Positions 1-6,303 of a DNA stretch of 64,000 nt are shown piece by piece (the stretch's first letter is position 1; every line of letters begins with the position of its first letter). The DNA lies in NCBI GenBank assembly GCA_963708185.1, contig OY970195.1:576001-640000 (forward strand), in the 5' to 3' direction. Source of the DNA: Candidatus Peregrinibacteria bacterium (GTDB taxonomy: Bacteria > Patescibacteriota > Gracilibacteria > UBA1369). The position numbers and the translations under genes were made by a program. Below the pieces are notes generated by a model, which worked only from the letters and a program-made list of their open reading frames with translations, made no database searches and was not told the origin of the DNA.

Positions 1-196
1 CGGATCCGCCGCATCCCTGGGAAAGCAGCCCCATGCTGATACCCGCAGCCGCAAGAAATTTAAGTACCGCTCCGCGGGCCTGATGACGTTTTGACGTAAA
101 GTTTGGCGTCGAAACTCCGCTTGTTGCCGCAGATTCAGGATGAGGGATCGCATCCGGCCGTGAAAAAACCGCTTCAGCCTGTTGTGGGTGAGACAT
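1..196 (-). CDS. 5' part of putative lipoprotein (runs off left edge)
   Basis: Manual translation from ATG 196: MSHPQQAEAVF...RHQARGAVLKFLAAAGISMGLLSQGCGGS; open to window edge; hydrophobic stretch + lipobox-like SQGC; no SD upstream. Confidence 0.55.
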   Translation of the reverse strand, partial: MSHPQQAEAVFSRPDAIPHPESAATSGVSTPNFTSKRHQARGAVLKFLAAAGISMGLLSQGCGGS

Positions 197-309
197 AGGT
201 TTGGGGGTTAGGGATATGAAAAAAGGGTGTTGTGAACGTGATTGACATATTTCTGAAAACTTTAATGCAAACTCCGGCAGGTTCATTACAAAATACAGGT
301 TGCATAGAT

Positions 310-355
310 AAGGAAAAGGGCCGTCCTCGTAGCTTGTAAGCTTTGAAGACGGCCC
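310..355 (-). terminator. Intrinsic terminator ending GC-rich cassette 1
   Basis: GGGCCGTC (318-325)/GACGGCCC (348-355) stem with inner AGCTT/AAGCT, followed on minus strand by TTTTCCTT. Confidence 0.7.
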
Positions 356-426
356 CTGATCCTGTTCTGATTGTCTTTGGCCTCCGCATAGCGGGGCTGT
401 GCACCGTGACCGTGAGGTCTTGGCGC

Positions 427-442
427 AATCCGGTTCATGAAA
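427..442. repeat. 3' arm of long-range inverted repeat (pairs with 4787-4802)
   Basis: AATCCGGTTCATGAAA is the exact reverse complement of TTTCATGAACCGGATT at 4787-4802. Confidence 0.9.
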
Positions 443-547
443 TATCCATTCTGCCTTACTTTCCGCGAAGGCTTGCGTGCTTCGATGAGAGTCGAAACCG
501 CTCTTGCCCGAATGCAGTCGGACGCTGTGTGCGAATGTAGGGCCTAC

Positions 548-2884
548 TCAGTAGTTGAAGACGAAATAGGCCCAGTTGGACGGACAGTCCGCGCTCACCG
601 AGAACGATCCGGGGTTGGTCTTGAGAAGGACGTACCCCGTCGTGTAGATCGCTCCGTAGAGATCGGGTTCCAGCTTCGGCGCCGGTCCGGGAGAAGGAGC
701 CGAAGGAGCGCACTTGAAGTAGACGCTCAACGGCCCCGTTCCCGAAGCGAACGTGAAGTCGACGGTCTGTCCGGGAGTGAGGTTGATTGCGACCCCGACA
801 TCGTCATTCGGTGAAGTGTTGACGGTGAAGGGGGTGCTCTGGCAGGTAGTGTCGTCCGATGACGAATCTCCGAGGATGACTCCGTAGTGGAGATGAATCA
901 CCTTGGTACAGGTGCCCGCTTCGATGCAGGTACCCGTGGTAGACGAGCAGGGACCGCCGGCATCGCTGCCGCCGCTTCCTCCCGAACCCGAGCTACCACT
1001 GGAACCGCCGGAACCGCTGGAGCCGGAGCTCCCGCTCGTTCCACCGGAACTGGTACTTCCGGCTGCACCACTGCTTCCGGCAGTGCCTCCGCTTCCGCCG
1101 CTTCCGGCATCTGCAGGAACACACATGTCGGTTGCAATGTCGCAGACCGTACCTGCTCCGCAGGCGCCTCCACAAGGAAGGCCGCCATCAGAGCCGCCCG
1201 CACCACCACTACCGGATGCGCCCCCACTGCCGCCGCTGCCGGCGTCAGATGGGACACACATGTCGGTCATGGTGTCGCAGACGGTGCCAGCTCCGCACTT
1301 TCCGTCACACGGCAAGACGAGGTCGCACAACCCCGTCATCGTGTTACAGACCGTACCGAGACCGCAGTGACCGCCGCAAGGATCTCCCCCGCCGCTGCCA
1401 CTGGACCCCGAACTGCCGCTGGAACCGCTGGAGCCGGAGCTCCCGCTAGATCCAGCACTGCCACTCGTGCCGCCGCTGCCTCCGGATCCGGAGGTGCAGA
1501 CACCCAGGGTGACGTTGCACGTCGTCCCTGGGCCGCATGCGCAGCTGCACGGATCCATGGCCGGGGTGCACGAACCGGCATCGCTGCCGCCCGCGCCTCC
1601 CGTTCCGGATGAACCAGATGAACCGGAAGAGCCGCCGCTGCCGGAGCTTCCCCCGGTGCCGCCGCTGCCTCCAGATCCGCCGGAGATATCGCACAGCCCC
1701 GTCATGGTGTTGCACACCGTGCCGGGGCCGCACTTATTCCCACAGGGATCGGTTCCTCCGCCGGAACCGCCGCTTCCGCCGCCACCCATATCCCGGTAGC
1801 AGTCGTTGTCGACGATTCCGTCGCAGTCGTTGTCGATGTGATCCCCGCACTCCTCCGGGCCCGTAGGCACGCAGATGCAGAGCGGAAGACCGTCATCAAC
1901 CTTGTTGTTGCAGTCGTTGTCGCGACCGTCGCAGACTTCGGGCATGGGCGAGCCCGGGATTGCGTCGCAACGGGTTGCCCAGGGCCCGTCGCAGATCACC
2001 TTGCCGAAGGCAAGGCAATCCCCAACGCCGAGAGTGCAGGGAAGGTTCGTCCCCCAGCCCTCGTCGATGAGGCTGTTGCCGTTGTTGTCGATACCGTCAC
2101 ATTTCTCGGCAACACAGAGCTTCGTGACGGGGTTGCAGACGGTGGTGCTTCCACAGACGCCGCCGCAGGGATCGCTCCCCGAGTCGCCGCCGCTTCCGCT
2201 GTCACCGCCAGTTCCGGAGTCGCCCCCGGTGCCGGCGTCGGACCCGCCCGTTCCTCCATCGCTGGATTCACAGGTGCAGGTCGACGTGTTGCAGTGGGTT
2301 CCCTGGCCGCAGTGGTTGTTGCAGTTGTTGCAACTCCCGCCGTCGGTGTTGGGAACACACTGTCCGTTGAGGCAGGTCGTGCCGGAGCCACAGTGGCCCC
2401 CGCAGTCCCCGCCGCCGTCTCCGCCCGGTACGCATTGCTTTGTATCCGGGTCGCAGACGGTAAGGGGTGGAGCGCAATGCCCTTTGCAGGGATCGCCTCC
2501 GCCGCCGGTCTCGCACTTGCCAGTATCCACGTTGCACGTGGTCCCGGAGGCGCAATGACCGCCGCACGGATCTCCACCACCCGCGACGCACTTGTCGGTC
2601 GCGACGTCGCAGGTGGTTCCGGGAGCGCATTTGCCGTTACAGGGATTGCTCCCCGGCGGCAAACACTTTCCGGTGTTTTGATCGCAGACGGTTCCGGGGC
2701 CACACGTGCCCTCGCAAACGTCCACGCCGCCCTCTCCGGTTCCGGAGCTTCCTCCGGTTCCGGGAGGGCATTGCCCGTTGAGGCAGAAGGGATGGTCTCC
2801 CTCGCTGCTGCATCCCACCGCGATAGCGATGGGGGCGAACAGTGAGAGTACCACCCACTTCCACCGCCTACGCGGTGAATACAT
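548..2884 (-). CDS. Cys/Gly/Ser-rich repeat lipoprotein with MopE-like (CDGxDNxC) motifs, myxobacterial style
   Basis: Signal peptide + AVGC lipobox; many DPCGGxCGxGTxC-like repeats, GGSGG linkers, three ExCDGxDNDCxGxxDxG-like motifs; start set at ATG 2884 because GGAG lies 6 nt upstream. Confidence 0.8.
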   Translation of the reverse strand: MYSPRRRWKWVVLSLFAPIAIAVGCSSEGDHPFCLNGQCPPGTGGSSGTGEGGVDVCEGTCGPGTVCDQNTGKCLPPGSNPCNGKCAPGTTCDVATDKCVAGGGDPCGGHCASGTTCNVDTGKCETGGGGDPCKGHCAPPLTVCDPDTKQCVPGGDGGGDCGGHCGSGTTCLNGQCVPNTDGGSCNNCNNHCGQGTHCNTSTCTCESSDGGTGGSDAGTGGDSGTGGDSGSGGDSGSDPCGGVCGSTTVCNPVTKLCVAEKCDGIDNNGNSLIDEGWGTNLPCTLGVGDCLAFGKVICDGPWATRCDAIPGSPMPEVCDGRDNDCNNKVDDGLPLCICVPTGPEECGDHIDNDCDGIVDNDCYRDMGGGGSGGSGGGTDPCGNKCGPGTVCNTMTGLCDISGGSGGSGGTGGSSGSGGSSGSSGSSGTGGAGGSDAGSCTPAMDPCSCACGPGTTCNVTLGVCTSGSGGSGGTSGSAGSSGSSGSSGSSGSSGSSGSGGGDPCGGHCGLGTVCNTMTGLCDLVLPCDGKCGAGTVCDTMTDMCVPSDAGSGGSGGASGSGGAGGSDGGLPCGGACGAGTVCDIATDMCVPADAGSGGSGGTAGSSGAAGSTSSGGTSGSSGSSGSGGSSGSSGSGGSGGSDAGGPCSSTTGTCIEAGTCTKVIHLHYGVILGDSSSDDTTCQSTPFTVNTSPNDDVGVAINLTPGQTVDFTFASGTGPLSVYFKCAPSAPSPGPAPKLEPDLYGAIYTTGYVLLKTNPGSFSVSADCPSNWAYFVFNY

Positions 2885-3136
2885 CGTTTTCTCCATGTGC
2901 CGGTCGTCACCGGCGTCGAAATTCCTCCGCAGGTGCGATCGTCATCGCAGCGGATTCACACTTTGCGCCGACCGTATTGTCTGGCGCGATGTTCTTGTTG
3001 GTAAACGATCGCGCCATAGTCGGCGACGTTGGTTGAGGTTGAGGTTTTGCATTCCCCGCGGGTGACGGATGTCGAATCCGTAAACCCGCGGGGTGCGCGA
3101 GGTGCCGTCTCAATTCCTTGCGGAAGAGCCGGCGGA

Positions 3137-4276
3137 TCAGAAACGGGCCCCGAGCGTACCGTGGGCATCGATGGCAGCGGCGTAGACGTTCTTGTCGCCG
3201 CCGTCGATGTGGTAGGACTGCATGAACGGCAACTGGGGAGAAGTCCCCAGCCCGAGGTAGACGCCGCGCCTCTCGTCTCCCGTCAACATGAAGTTGACGC
3301 CGAGATTGAGCGCGAGGCCGCCCTCGATGTCGTTCTTGGCGTGGTTGTTCCAGACCGTACCATCGGCCGCCTGGCCGATGTTGGTGTCGGGAACGTGAAT
3401 CCAGCGCATGAACGGGCCACCACCCAGGACGACGTCCACGCGGCTCCCCACCGGGATGCCCGCCTGGAACATGACGCCCCACCAGGTGATGTCCTGCCAC
3501 ACGCTGGGCTCGGTGAGCGGAACGCCCACCACGCCGCGGTTGTCGATGCGGCCGCGGGCATACCCCGCGAACGCTGCAACCTCGAAGGCCGTCTCGTTCA
3601 CCGGACCCACGTGGTACGTGAACTGTCCCTGCACGCCTCCCGCGACATCGAAGCCGCCGGTACGGAAGTACGCCATCGGCTCGAGGTCGAGCCTGGTGCG
3701 TCCGTCCGAACCGAAATGGGCACCCAAAGGCTCGTACCTCGAGTCGGATTCCGGCCTGGTGTAGGAGTCGCCGATGTTGGCCTTGCCGACGAGATCGCTC
3801 TTGTCGGCCTTGCCGTCGAGCTTGCCGTTGACCGCGTCGATGGCCGGCTGTTCCACGAGCTTGTCCTTGCCGTAGACCATCACGGTGAAGGTAGCACCGC
3901 TACCGTCCGTGAAGGTCAGCGTCTTGGACGCACCCGGGTCGACCGCCACCTCGCCCTCGAACTCCGCGAACGCGGAGACGAGGACGACAGTGGTGCCGCT
4001 CTTCGTTTCCGACACCTCGGGCTTCGTCAGCGGAGCCGGGAAATCAGAAGAAGTGACCTTCCCCTGGGTCCCGTTCTTGCAGTACAGGCGAATCCGAAGA
4101 CTCGCCGAACCGCGGACCACCACACCGGAGGTGTTGGTGGTGCCGACGTAGTCCTGGATGCCGTCCTTGAAGATGAGCGGCTGCCGACAATCGGCAGCGA
4201 ACGCGGTCTTGCCCACCACGATGGTGGCGAGCGCGAACACCAACCCGACGAACCCTTTCATGAGCTTGTGAGACAT
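3137..4276 (-). CDS. Secreted protein with probable C-terminal outer-membrane beta-barrel
   Basis: Signal peptide ending AFA-A; alternating beta-strand pattern in C-terminal half; ends AIDAHGTLGARF (terminal Phe); GAAAGGTG SD-like 6 nt before ATG 4276. Confidence 0.7.
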   Translation of the reverse strand: MSHKLMKGFVGLVFALATIVVGKTAFAADCRQPLIFKDGIQDYVGTTNTSGVVVRGSASLRIRLYCKNGTQGKVTSSDFPAPLTKPEVSETKSGTTVVLVSAFAEFEGEVAVDPGASKTLTFTDGSGATFTVMVYGKDKLVEQPAIDAVNGKLDGKADKSDLVGKANIGDSYTRPESDSRYEPLGAHFGSDGRTRLDLEPMAYFRTGGFDVAGGVQGQFTYHVGPVNETAFEVAAFAGYARGRIDNRGVVGVPLTEPSVWQDITWWGVMFQAGIPVGSRVDVVLGGGPFMRWIHVPDTNIGQAADGTVWNNHAKNDIEGGLALNLGVNFMLTGDERRGVYLGLGTSPQLPFMQSYHIDGGDKNVYAAAIDAHGTLGARF

Positions 4277-4786
4277 GTTTTTCACCTTTCATCTGACTGT
4301 TGAACTCTTGTGTCCGAGCCGCGCTATGGGAGCAACGAACCGGACGAACCTATGATACTCCGCCTTATGGGCGGTGGCCGCCTACGGCCCAACTTTTCCT
4401 TTGAATCGTAAGGCCGATACGGCCTAAACCGCCCGCCACCACAGCGGAGCGGTTCGCCCTTAGTGCATGTAACTACCCTTTCGGGGCTGCATGCACATAG
4501 GGCCGAGGCGGTGGTGTGGGCGCCTCTTGCGGAAGCGCTTCATACTACCTTTTCCTTTCCTCTACCCTCTTGCTCTTACCTTAACTCACCGAAGTGTGAG
4601 TATGTCGGCGAACTCGAGAGCTCATAACTACTCTCCAGGGCTGGGCCCTATTAAGCAGACCCGTCAAACGGACCTGCAGAAAAGCAGCTTTGAGCTCTCG
4701 AGTCACCAAAAAAATTTTAGAATGTTTTGTACACACGAACTTGCGTTGGCCCGCTCTTAAGGAGCTAGCACACTCGCTTCTTCGTG

Positions 4787-4802
4787 TTTCATGAACCGGA
4801 TT
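4787..4802. repeat. 5' arm of long-range inverted repeat (pairs with 427-442)
   Basis: 16-bp perfect complement to cassette trailer. Confidence 0.9.
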
Positions 4803-4812
4803 TTCAAAGATC
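4801..4812 (-). promoter_or_regulatory. boxA-like antitermination motif
   Basis: Minus strand GATCTTTGAAAA resembles rrn boxA (E. coli TGCTCTTTAACA). Confidence 0.5.
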
Positions 4813-4985
4813 CATCAGTACAGGAAGCCCAAACAAACAATTTCGTTCTGTTTGAGCTTGTAAAAGACACTTAAAATCGAGCCCTTCCAGCCTTTTCCTT
4901 TGCCGGAATCAGTAGCCCGATGTTCAATTTGTGTCTTTTATAAGCCCAAAAGAGTTGAGGGGTAGGTAAATTTTTAAAGGAAGTA

Positions 4986-5015
4986 ATTATAACCACAAAA
5001 GTCTATTTTTGTCAA
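4986..5015 (-). promoter_or_regulatory. Sigma70 promoter of cassette 1
   Basis: TTGACA (5015-5010), 18 nt, TATAAT (4991-4986). Confidence 0.85.
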
Positions 5016-5169
5016 TACATTTCGGGTCATATTTCTCCCTTTACCCTCGTAAATGCTTTTTGGCTTCGGGTATTACAAAACTGCGGTTTGAAATTTTGAA
5101 AAATTATGATGCAATCTTGAAGAGATCTTCTCTTTCGCGTGAAAGCTATTTTTGGGCTACAATACAATC

Positions 5170-6303
5170 ATGAAGCAAACACCTCATTTTGTGATTTGCG
5201 GAAATTACGGCGCCACCAACATTGGTGACGAAGCTATTTTGCAAAGCATTTTGCAGTTTTGCCGCCACGCTTTTCCGCATGCGGACATTACCGTCATCAG
5301 TTCGAATCCCGCACGCACCGCCGAGCAGTACGACGTCAAAACCGTTCCGATGATGCCCGCTGGCCTTCGCTCCTACGTCAAAGCTTTTTTCAGCAGAAGC
5401 ATGCGAAAAACACTCCATGCCTATAAACGCGCCGACGCCGTCATTTTTGGCGGAGGAGGCCTTTTTACCGATGAAAGACCACACGCCATTTTCATCTGGC
5501 TCATGCAAATTCTTCCCGCTTTCCGATATAAAAAGCCAGTAATGAGTCTCGGTCAAAGCGTCGGTCCGCTCATGAACAGATGGAGTCGCTGGGTCGTGGG
5601 GAAAATTTTCAGGAAAATGAAAATCGTTACCGTCCGCGATGAAGCCTCGCAACTGCTGCTCAGAAAACTGAACGTCCGCAACATCCACGTTTTGCCTGAC
5701 CCTGTTTTTGGCTTTCACCTGAGGAAATCACACGAATCTCCAGCCCCACGCGAACGCAAACCCTACATTGTTTTTTCGTTGAGGCCGTGGATCAGAAATG
5801 CCGAAAAAATCCGCGGAATTCTCGCGCAATTCGTTGACTGGATTTTTGAAACGTACCATCTGCGCACCTACTTCGTTCCCTTCCAGTCGCTCCATGATGA
5901 TGACGAAAATGAATGTCTCCAGGTTCTTCTCAAACTGGAACATCGAAGCGTCTGCGAGGTTCTTTCGCACAATGAAGAGATGCGTGACACCCTCAAATTG
6001 ATGGAAGAGTCCACGGCGGTTATCGGGATGCGTCTTCATTCCATTATTTTTTCTGCGATAACGCATACCCCGTTTTTAGCGCTTTCCTACAGCCTAAAAG
6101 TAGCAGAGGTTGCCAAACAGCTTGGGATGGAAGACTTCCTGGACGAGTACCGGTTCGTGGATCTGGATACGTTGAAAAAGAAATTCGAAAAACTTTTCAG
6201 TGAGCGAACGCACGTGGAAAAATCTCTTGAGGAAATGCATAAAGAGCTGGAGCACAAAACCGAACAGTATGCTCACATGATCAAACAGCTTGTGGATGCC
6301 TGA
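5170..6303 (+). CDS. csaB: Polysaccharide pyruvyl transferase (CsaB-like)
   Basis: GNYGATNIGDEAI, FGGGGLF, GQSVGP, TVRD, GMRLHS motifs. Confidence 0.85.
   Translation: MKQTPHFVICGNYGATNIGDEAILQSILQFCRHAFPHADITVISSNPARTAEQYDVKTVPMMPAGLRSYVKAFFSRSMRKTLHAYKRADAVIFGGGGLFTDERPHAIFIWLMQILPAFRYKKPVMSLGQSVGPLMNRWSRWVVGKIFRKMKIVTVRDEASQLLLRKLNVRNIHVLPDPVFGFHLRKSHESPAPRERKPYIVFSLRPWIRNAEKIRGILAQFVDWIFETYHLRTYFVPFQSLHDDDENECLQVLLKLEHRSVCEVLSHNEEMRDTLKLMEESTAVIGMRLHSIIFSAITHTPFLALSYSLKVAEVAKQLGMEDFLDEYRFVDLDTLKKKFEKLFSERTHVEKSLEEMHKELEHKTEQYAHMIKQLVDA

Follow-up and report, generated by a model that had tools for sequence, protein, structure and literature searches.

A predicted two-helix leader-trailer stalk of the rRNA type around a two-gene surface-protein operon in Candidatus Peribacteria

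A two-gene operon on the minus strand lies near the start of a 64,000-nucleotide stretch (the window; contig OY970195.1, positions 576,001 to 640,000) from the genome of a bacterium of the Candidatus Peribacteria, a lineage of the candidate phyla radiation (CPR). The operon is bracketed by two sequence arms 4.3 kb apart, of which the left, AATCCGGTTCATGAAA at window 427-442, is the exact reverse complement of the right, TTTCATGAACCGGATT at 4787-4802. An initial annotation made from the letters alone had described this perfect 16-bp inverted repeat, and its placement of the arms proved accurate: the right arm shares two nucleotides (4801-4802) with the end of a boxA-like motif in the leader, and the left arm lies in the 3′ trailer, between the stop codon at 548 and a hairpin, followed by a run of U, at about 355-305. 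These arms are probably the inner helix, H2, of a two-part leader-trailer stalk of the rRNA type that closes a surface-protein mRNA of about 4.7 kb. The body of the stalk consists of two protein-coding genes, as judged by homologues, signal peptides, and codon-phased indels, and holds no rRNA. The structure would work like an rRNA-type processing stalk, yet it is no rRNA stalk. The parts of the predicted transcription unit are collected in Table 1.

Table 1. Parts of the predicted transcription unit in window coordinates, listed from promoter to terminator
Feature	Position	Strand	Remarks
Promoter, TTGACA-18-TATAAT	4986..5015	-	sigma-70 type, 12/12 match to consensus; invariant block in the four-species leader alignment
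Predicted transcription start	near 4979	-	placed from the promoter
First leader hairpin, variable top	4851..4950	-	5′ of the boxA-like motif; inverted repeat of 20 nt at 90%
Outer helix H1, 5′ strand UCCUGUACUGAUGGAUCUUUG	4805..4825	-	holds the boxA-like core; pairs with 360-379
boxA-like motif GATCTTTGAAAA	4801..4812	-	2-nt overlap with H2 5′ arm
Inner helix H2, 5′ arm (right arm)	4787..4802	-	pairs with 427-442
Small third long-range helix, 5′ strand CAUUCU	4719..4724	-	pairs with 447-452; weak
Inner leader, about 500 nt, several conserved hairpins, from stalk to start codon	4286..4786	-	
Gene 1	3137..4285	-	candidate starts 4285, 4276, 4261
Gene 2, 782 aa	548..2896	-	open reading frame
Small third helix, 3′ strand AGAAUG	447..452	-	cofold and whole-transcript fold
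Inner helix H2, 3′ arm (left arm)	427..442	-	in trailer, 3′ of the stop codon
Two local trailer hairpins, the second being CCCCGCUAUGCGGAGG	380..426	-	separate H2 from H1 on the 3′ side
Outer helix H1, 3′ strand CAAAGACAAUCAGAACAGGA	360..379	-	CAAAGA opposite the boxA-like UCUUUG; conserved block in trailer alignment
Terminator hairpin GGGCCGUC..GACGGCCC, then UUUUCCUU	305..355	-	cofold; counterparts in all four species

The genome of the window organism (G000) is a single contig, C1, of 1,437,033 bp, 99% complete and with a GC content of 49.8%, and it was compared with three other species of the same genus that carry the full locus (G002, G003, and G004) and with a fifth species in which the locus is partial (G001). 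Homologues of gene 1 were found in three of the four other species of the genus, at identities of 32-38% in the search and 29-35% in the alignment, and were absent from all 36 further genomes searched in the family and order. Both genes, a divergent pyruvyl-transferase gene, the long leader, and the trailer keep their order and orientation in G002, G003, and G004. The leader was detected in five of 36 family genomes, G000 included, all of them within the genus, and in none of the 31 family genomes outside it; G001 holds just its first 234 nt, at a contig end, and a convincing trailer was not found in that genome. Alignments of the four species with the full locus (G000 and its three relatives, the set meant by four species below) showed that leader and trailer DNA are conserved far above the encoded proteins, with leader identities of 65-71% between species versus protein identities of 29-35%. 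Searches with the gene 1 alignment retrieved only the loci of G002, G003, and G004 again from genome contigs and nothing related from metagenome contigs, and a pattern scan of the metagenome contigs with the motif preceding the arm gave three matches (L029-L031) in unrelated coding DNA, which were taken as chance.

By itself, a perfect 16-nt pair is weak evidence and is unremarkable against the background of this genome, which holds 24 maximal perfect inverted pairs of at least 16 nt at distances of 200-6000 nt, including 10 of exactly 16 nt, where the same count in five order-2 Markov genomes gave 3, 1, 3, 3, and 4. The arms are significant because they are conserved in relatives, not because of the repeat itself. 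Just these two copies of the arm occur in the genome when up to one mismatch is allowed, and small palindromes (TTCATGAA and CCGG), recognized by direct reading, make up part of it.

Pairing between the arms was compared position by position in the four species, using the invariant GTTCATGAAA / TTTCATGAAC as anchor. All 60 cells of the pair table from offset -5 to +9 hold standard pairs, and four positions are changed on both sides, at offsets -3, -1, +10, and +11. At offset -3 the window has C:G where the three relatives have U:A, offset -1 is G:C in two species and A:U in the other two, the helix is lengthened at +10 in the three relatives by G:C, U:A, or U.G (the last in G002), and at +11 one species has G:C and another C:G. 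Changes on one side gave rise to two G.U pairs (-2 in G004 and +10 in G002), while 10 of the 16 arm positions are invariant in both arms. Covariation in homologous loci, which the initial annotation had named as a check on an RNA stalk, was thus positive, with complementarity kept in all four species. The predicted free energy (ΔG) of the H2 duplex in the window is -25.0 kcal/mol, and in each of the four species none of 1500 random 85-nt genomic pieces matched the energy of H2. When the leaders and trailers were exchanged among species in all combinations, the cognate duplexes had ΔG values of -22.3 to -23.9 kcal/mol and the 12 non-cognate ones -15.0 to -20.5 kcal/mol, the cognate duplex being the strongest in every one of the four rows and four columns.

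These results bear directly on the possibility that two conserved but unrelated elements, each binding something of its own, are complementary by chance and do not pair. Perfect matches of at least 16 nt at such spacing are indeed common in this genome, the 10 invariant arm positions are uninformative on pairing, and just four related species were compared; yet each variable position within the helix changes in a manner that keeps the pair, and the cognate pairing is best in eight of eight row and column comparisons. Chance also leaves it without a reason that a second helix adjoins H2 in all four species, that the helices outlast competition in folds of the whole transcript, and that the design is repeated around a second protein-coding gene and in the two rRNA units, as described below. 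We consider chance complementarity so improbable that it deserves hardly any weight.

The second helix was found by cofolding leader and trailer, which placed an outer helix of 14-19 bp, H1, at the same relative place in all four species. H1 has 18 bp in the window, and its 3′ strand ends at 360, five bases before the stem of the terminator at about 355. The core pairing joins UCUUUG to CAAAGA in G000 and G003 and GUCUU to AAGAC in G004. Global minimum free energy folds were computed for the complete predicted transcripts of G000 (4675 nt), G003, and G004, and H1 and H2 both formed in all three, closing the molecule. The small third helix, with six pairs, has the counterparts UUCU/AGAA in G003 and AUUCU/AGAAU in G004, and no counterpart in the cofold of G002. 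RNAduplex runs on whole leaders and trailers were dropped, as they were swamped by loose pairing with GC-rich coding sequence. The stalk had at first been described as a single repeat, a picture that was right for H2 but incomplete, since it missed both the outer helix and the likeness to the rRNA units.

The same arms could be read as a DNA-level element, either as recombinase sites that invert the 4.4-kb segment (phase variation), as terminal repeats of a mobile element, or as twin operators built on the TTCATGAA palindrome. A perfect inverted repeat around variable surface-protein genes, with the promoter outside, is what such an element could look like, and the palindromes within the arm suit a dimeric DNA-binding protein. 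Identical arms are likewise required at the cores of recombination sites, so that changes on both sides are not by themselves exclusive to RNA, and the comparison of sense and antisense energies is indecisive on the strand. Against a DNA-level element, however, Pfam searches found no recombinase or transposase among the 14 neighbouring open reading frames (ORFs), about 10 kb to either side, where the products with a match include RmlD, RmlA, a PfkB kinase, ProRS, the pyruvyl transferase, RNase HII, L19, and trigger factor, and no transposase family was matched in the two enclosed genes. There is no target-site duplication (the flanks are TGGCGC and TTCAAA), the arms have no further copies in the genome, and the segment has a single orientation in four of four genomes. 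The U.G pair within the arm of G004 would be a T/C mismatch as DNA, the bulged second helix and a one-sided insert suit RNA and not recombination sites, and a like design surrounds rRNA genes, which do not invert. The early preference for an RNA stalk over transposon ends therefore stands, with arms that covary in all four species and hallmarks of mobile elements not found, and we regard a DNA-level element as quite improbable. DNA reads from three runs assembled into short contigs of low depth, with zero depth at 250-573 and 4300-5100; they showed no inversion joints but were uninformative on inversion, and a rare inversion of the 427-4802 segment may occur. A search for RNA runs containing the locus listed none.

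The rRNA units of G000 provide the closest comparison for this layout. Both the 16S and the 23S leaders carry the boxA GTTCTTTAACA, which fits the consensus GYTCTTTAANA given for gamma-proteobacteria (PMC5725501) at 11 of 11 positions and stands at the same position relative to the stalks as the motif in the operon leader. From the 16S boxA the sequence passes directly into a stalk of leader and trailer about 40 bp long, the 23S boxA likewise pairs with its trailer, and boxA is inside both stalks. The 16S gene (C1:372254-373755) is separate from 23S-5S (about C1:377800-381200) and is followed by a protein-coding gene; the two units have a promoter, boxA, and stalk each, and a U-rich tract comes after the 3′ arm of the 16S stalk. 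The boxA-like sequence of the operon, GATCTTTGAAA, fits 9 of the 11 positions of the same consensus and retains G2, C5, and U6, which have been named as critical (PMC3177189).

Exact copies of GATCTTTGAAAA number four in the genome, against none for the reversed control. The copies at C1:388018, 965067, and 1431169 had no clear long-range partner or had a 13-mer in coding sequence, and were taken as chance, as was a 15-mer pair at 1117307 with both arms within genes. Sliding-window duplex scans 3′ of other boxA-like sites were swamped by GC-rich coding sequence and dropped, having been useful for the 16S stalk only. At C1:388018-388300 the exact GATCTTTGAAAA stands behind a promoter and is followed by a 48-codon ORF with a GC content at third codon positions (GC3) of 0.875; a long-range partner was not found for this copy.

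A second protein-coding unit of this design lies on the minus strand just downstream of the operon, outside the window (C1:573598-575200; L032:7587-9200). It has a consensus-like promoter, a boxB-like hairpin, the boxA-like sequence AGTTCTTTGAAAA, and a leader-trailer helix of 15-16 bp, whose 5′ arm pairs with sequence 1.5 kb downstream that adjoins a U-rich tract. The unit encloses one gene, for a Cys-rich secreted protein of 368 aa (L032:7835-8941), and G003 and G004 share its arms and layout, with no covariation. Near C1 373.9, 573.5, and 965.2 kb, a GC-rich element about 60 nt long (GAGCGCA..GCGCGAGGGCG..GUGGC..) is repeated in one orientation or the other; the first two sites follow the 16S unit and the second stalk unit, and the third is within the leader of a gene for a 1494-aa secreted protein, a leader that also bears GATCTTTGAAAA.

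The genome encodes factors invoked for an rRNA-type stalk, with nusB and the RNase III gene rnc adjacent on the same strand at C1:667052-667969 (rnc at C1:667052-667441). Rho was not found in this 99%-complete single-contig genome, where Rho_RNA_bind had no match and the best TIGR00767 match reached 48 bits against a cut-off of 509. The textbook role of boxA is its anti-Rho action.

That Rho was not found enters a further explanation, in which the stalk is a real RNA structure that serves transcription control instead of processing or the protection of ends. The 3′ strand of H1 (CAAAGA...) would act as an anti-boxA that, by pairing with the boxA-like motif, strips NusB/S10 from the polymerase a few nucleotides before the terminator, and a complex otherwise resistant to termination could thereby stop at the end of the unit. 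Agreement with this comes from the core pairing in G000, G003, and G004, from the short distance between the end of the H1 3′ strand at 360 and the terminator stem, from the position of boxA inside both rRNA stalks, and from the consideration that, with no Rho found, boxA must serve another purpose here. Nevertheless, the UCUUUG core is unpaired in G002, the resistance of a Nus complex to intrinsic terminators in this organism is an assumption, and H2 is left unexplained. We judge an anti-boxA to be unlikely as the account of this locus; it is also compatible with the rRNA-type stalk rather than exclusive of it.

Beyond the stalk, the leader and trailer contain further conserved structure. The first leader hairpin was supported by RNAalifold, in which columns 97-121 pair with 181-208 and nearly all of these are invariant in the four species, and for the inner leader RNAalifold gave 157 pairs, nine of them changed on both sides. 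Several inner-leader hairpins are kept in the four species, for example GAGAGCUCAAAGCUGCUUUUC...GAGCUCUC and AAGGGCGAACCGCUCCG...GGCGGAGU, and the inner leader of G002 is without one block of about 110 nt. At window 4826-4950, AGCUCAAACA is able to pair with either the upstream UUUGGGCUU or the downstream UGUUUGGGCU, both of which are conserved, and these pairings may represent alternative structures directly ahead of the stalk. Both local trailer hairpins appear in the cofolds of all four species, the second in variants with CCCCGC..GCGGAGG or CCUCGC..GCGAGG. The terminator hairpin had been missed by a simple terminator scan because its loop is above the limit of the scan. Searches of Rfam at E ≤ 1 matched no family in window 1-5200, leader included, nor in the 10.4-kb upstream locus, and at Rfam gathering scores the window yielded only two tRNAs.

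Both genes of the operon encode proteins with features of the cell surface. The product of gene 1 is a putatively secreted protein whose predicted parts are a signal peptide, a beta domain at the N terminus, and an eight-stranded beta-barrel at the C terminus. It matched no Pfam family, and a search of 5.8 billion proteins returned only three further homologues (P0005, P0006, and P0007). An AlphaFold2 model built from seven sequences had a mean predicted local distance difference test score (pLDDT) of 63, with 75-88 in the C-terminal half, and Foldseek matched that half to Ail, OmpX, OmpA, and OmpW with E values down to 4e-6 and template modelling (TM) scores, normalized to the target, of 0.54-0.70. 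The C-terminal half (window 3137-3700) ends in an aromatic residue, and the barrel is modelled with moderate confidence. To our knowledge, CPR bacteria lack an outer membrane, and if they do, the predicted OmpX/Ail-like barrel is unexpected. Gene 2 encodes a protein of 9.3% Cys and 23.5% Gly with Gly/Ser linkers, a lipoprotein-like signal (..AVGC, the lipobox read by eye), and a weak match to the MopE metal-binding motif that falls below the Pfam cut-off. Cys-rich extracellular proteins such as these have been described before as the part of the Peribacteria surface that differs from strain to strain and probably contacts the host (PMC4736985).

The three genes enclosed by stalks, two in the operon and one in the second unit, are compositional outliers. 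They are the only three of 622 ORFs of at least 300 aa with a GC content of at least 0.62, and their GC3 values are 0.86 (gene 1), 0.72, and 0.875, compared to a genome mean of 0.604 (standard deviation 0.079). The value of 0.875, the top of the genome, belongs to the gene for the 368-aa protein, and two enclosed genes rank first and second among the 2405 ORFs of at least 100 aa. Recent horizontal transfer was rejected as the source of the high GC content, as orthologues at 29-35% protein identity share the GC3 excess. Because the orthologues of gene 1 keep a GC3 of 0.88-0.91, with neighbouring genes at about 0.45-0.65, the excess is a lasting trait, not something newly acquired. The usual selection of codons in highly expressed genes offers no obvious explanation, since the genes for ribosomal protein L19 (GC3 of 0.55) and trigger factor (0.66) have no such excess. 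The high GC3 may instead be linked to mRNA structure or nuclease resistance.

Taken as an rRNA-type stalk, the locus suggests the following course of events. The consensus promoter would be followed on the RNA by about 150 nt of leader hairpins, the 5′ strand of H1 with the boxA-like motif, and the 5′ arm of H2, and then by the 500-nt structured leader, gene 1, gene 2, the 3′ arm of H2, the two hairpins, the 3′ strand of H1, and the terminator. NusB/S10 would bind the boxA-like motif GGAUCUUUGAAAA on the nascent RNA and hold the 5′ strands close to the polymerase until the trailer emerges about 4.3 kb later, when H2 and H1 could form. The stalk would then either be cut by RNase III, as in rRNA, or shield both ends of the mRNA, and either outcome would set the lifetime of the message. 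What the sequences show is that the arms are complementary, conserved, and covarying, that other units share the design, and that nusB and rnc are present; from this we infer the RNA as drawn, the Nus binding, the cleavage, and the effect on stability.

Several observations weigh against this interpretation. H1 is irregular, with bulges and mismatches, and its energy was equalled by 11, 114 (G003, the worst case), 4, and 20 of 1500 random pieces in the four species; in G002 it uses UGGUC and leaves the UCUUUG core unpaired. Duplex energies gave the sense strand no clear advantage over the antisense strand: sense was favoured for H1 in three of four species and for H2 in three of four, but when the two helices were summed, sense and antisense energies were about equal in G000 and G003. 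Compared with classical RNase III sites, the 16 bp of H2 are few, unless H2 is stacked on H1. Two of the 11 positions of the boxA-like motif deviate from the rRNA boxA of the same organism, and with Rho not found the anti-Rho reason for a boxA is missing. Where transcription starts, and that it takes in both leader and trailer, is predicted, and since the four species are related and belong to one genus, the both-sided changes may reflect as few as 4-6 events.

More speculatively, Peribacteria could possess a dedicated module, in the manner of stable RNA, for their major surface proteins. Such a module, which we offer as a tentative extension, would bring together a promoter of consensus type, a polymerase modified by boxA/Nus, a leader-trailer stalk, and coding sequence of extreme GC3 to produce closed, nuclease-resistant mRNAs in a cell without Rho, with closure of the stalk coupled to termination as the anti-boxA strand of the trailer frees the Nus complex just ahead of the terminator. 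If it exists, it would be a new use of the machinery of rRNA antitermination and processing and a new class of bacterial mRNA architecture. A conserved stalk of the rRNA type around whole protein-coding units would, even without such a module, mean that the Nus and RNase III toolkit is open to redeployment for mRNAs, that the role of boxA in an organism with no detected Rho is RNA folding or tethering, not anti-Rho action, and that the outlier composition of CPR surface-protein genes has a reason. The stalk, with two helices of about 35 bp in total, would also be a compact natural substrate for studying how the ends of a long RNA meet during transcription.

It is customary to see boxA together with a leader-trailer helix as a hallmark of rRNA biogenesis. 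We found no report of boxA together with a leader-trailer helix around a protein-coding operon in the literature searched, supplements being outside the scope of that search. Like the stalks of rRNA, the operon has complementary sequences around the whole body of its transcript and a boxA-type motif at the 5′ strand, preceded by leader hairpins and by a strong promoter, and the organism has the same layout in its own 16S and 23S units as well as genes for NusB and RNase III. Unlike them, it encloses translated genes and not stable RNA, its stalk is split into two helices by the trailer hairpins, its boxA-like motif departs from the rRNA boxA, and RNase III cleavage is proposed by analogy. In E. 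coli, the leader-trailer helix is essential if active 30S subunits are to be made, with boxA contributing less (PMC10250234).

Nus factors are also known to act beyond rRNA, with boxA within the 5′ untranslated regions (UTRs) of suhB, a ParE-like toxin gene, and others (PMC5725501). The suhB boxA represses translation and promotes Rho termination, and in these non-rRNA cases boxA is no more than about 50 nt away from the start codon (PMC5725501). The operon resembles such genes in having a boxA-like motif in the 5′ UTR of a protein-coding gene, but here the motif is about 520 nt 5′ of the start codon and is coupled to a long-range stalk in a genome where Rho was not found, whereas for those genes no leader-trailer helix is described in the passages of PMC5725501 consulted.

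The pairings between 5′ and 3′ ends of bacterial mRNAs known to us are short, gene-specific, and directed at the ribosome-binding site. In the fold-back inhibition of hok mRNA of plasmid R1, pairing of the 5′ tac and 3′ fbi elements closes the mRNA and makes it long-lived; this small mRNA, of about 400 nt, encodes a toxin and is activated by 3′ trimming. The operon shares the long-range pairing of 5′ and 3′ mRNA ends with hok, which is not known to have a boxA or an rRNA-like layout. Pairing of the 5′ and 3′ UTRs within one mRNA has also been described for icaR of Staphylococcus aureus and hbs of Bacillus subtilis, where it is linked to ribonucleases, RNase III in the case of icaR (PMC3868564, PMC5737220). 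Here too, the two untranslated ends of a single mRNA base-pair, but the pairing of icaR controls translation, whereas here some 500 nt separate the leader arm (4787-4802) from the candidate start codons (4285-4261), which are downstream of it, so that no pairing of the 3′ UTR with a ribosome-binding site of the icaR type was found with these arms. What sets the operon apart from icaR and hbs is a body of 4.3 kb with two genes, a boxA-like motif, and the layout of an rRNA unit.

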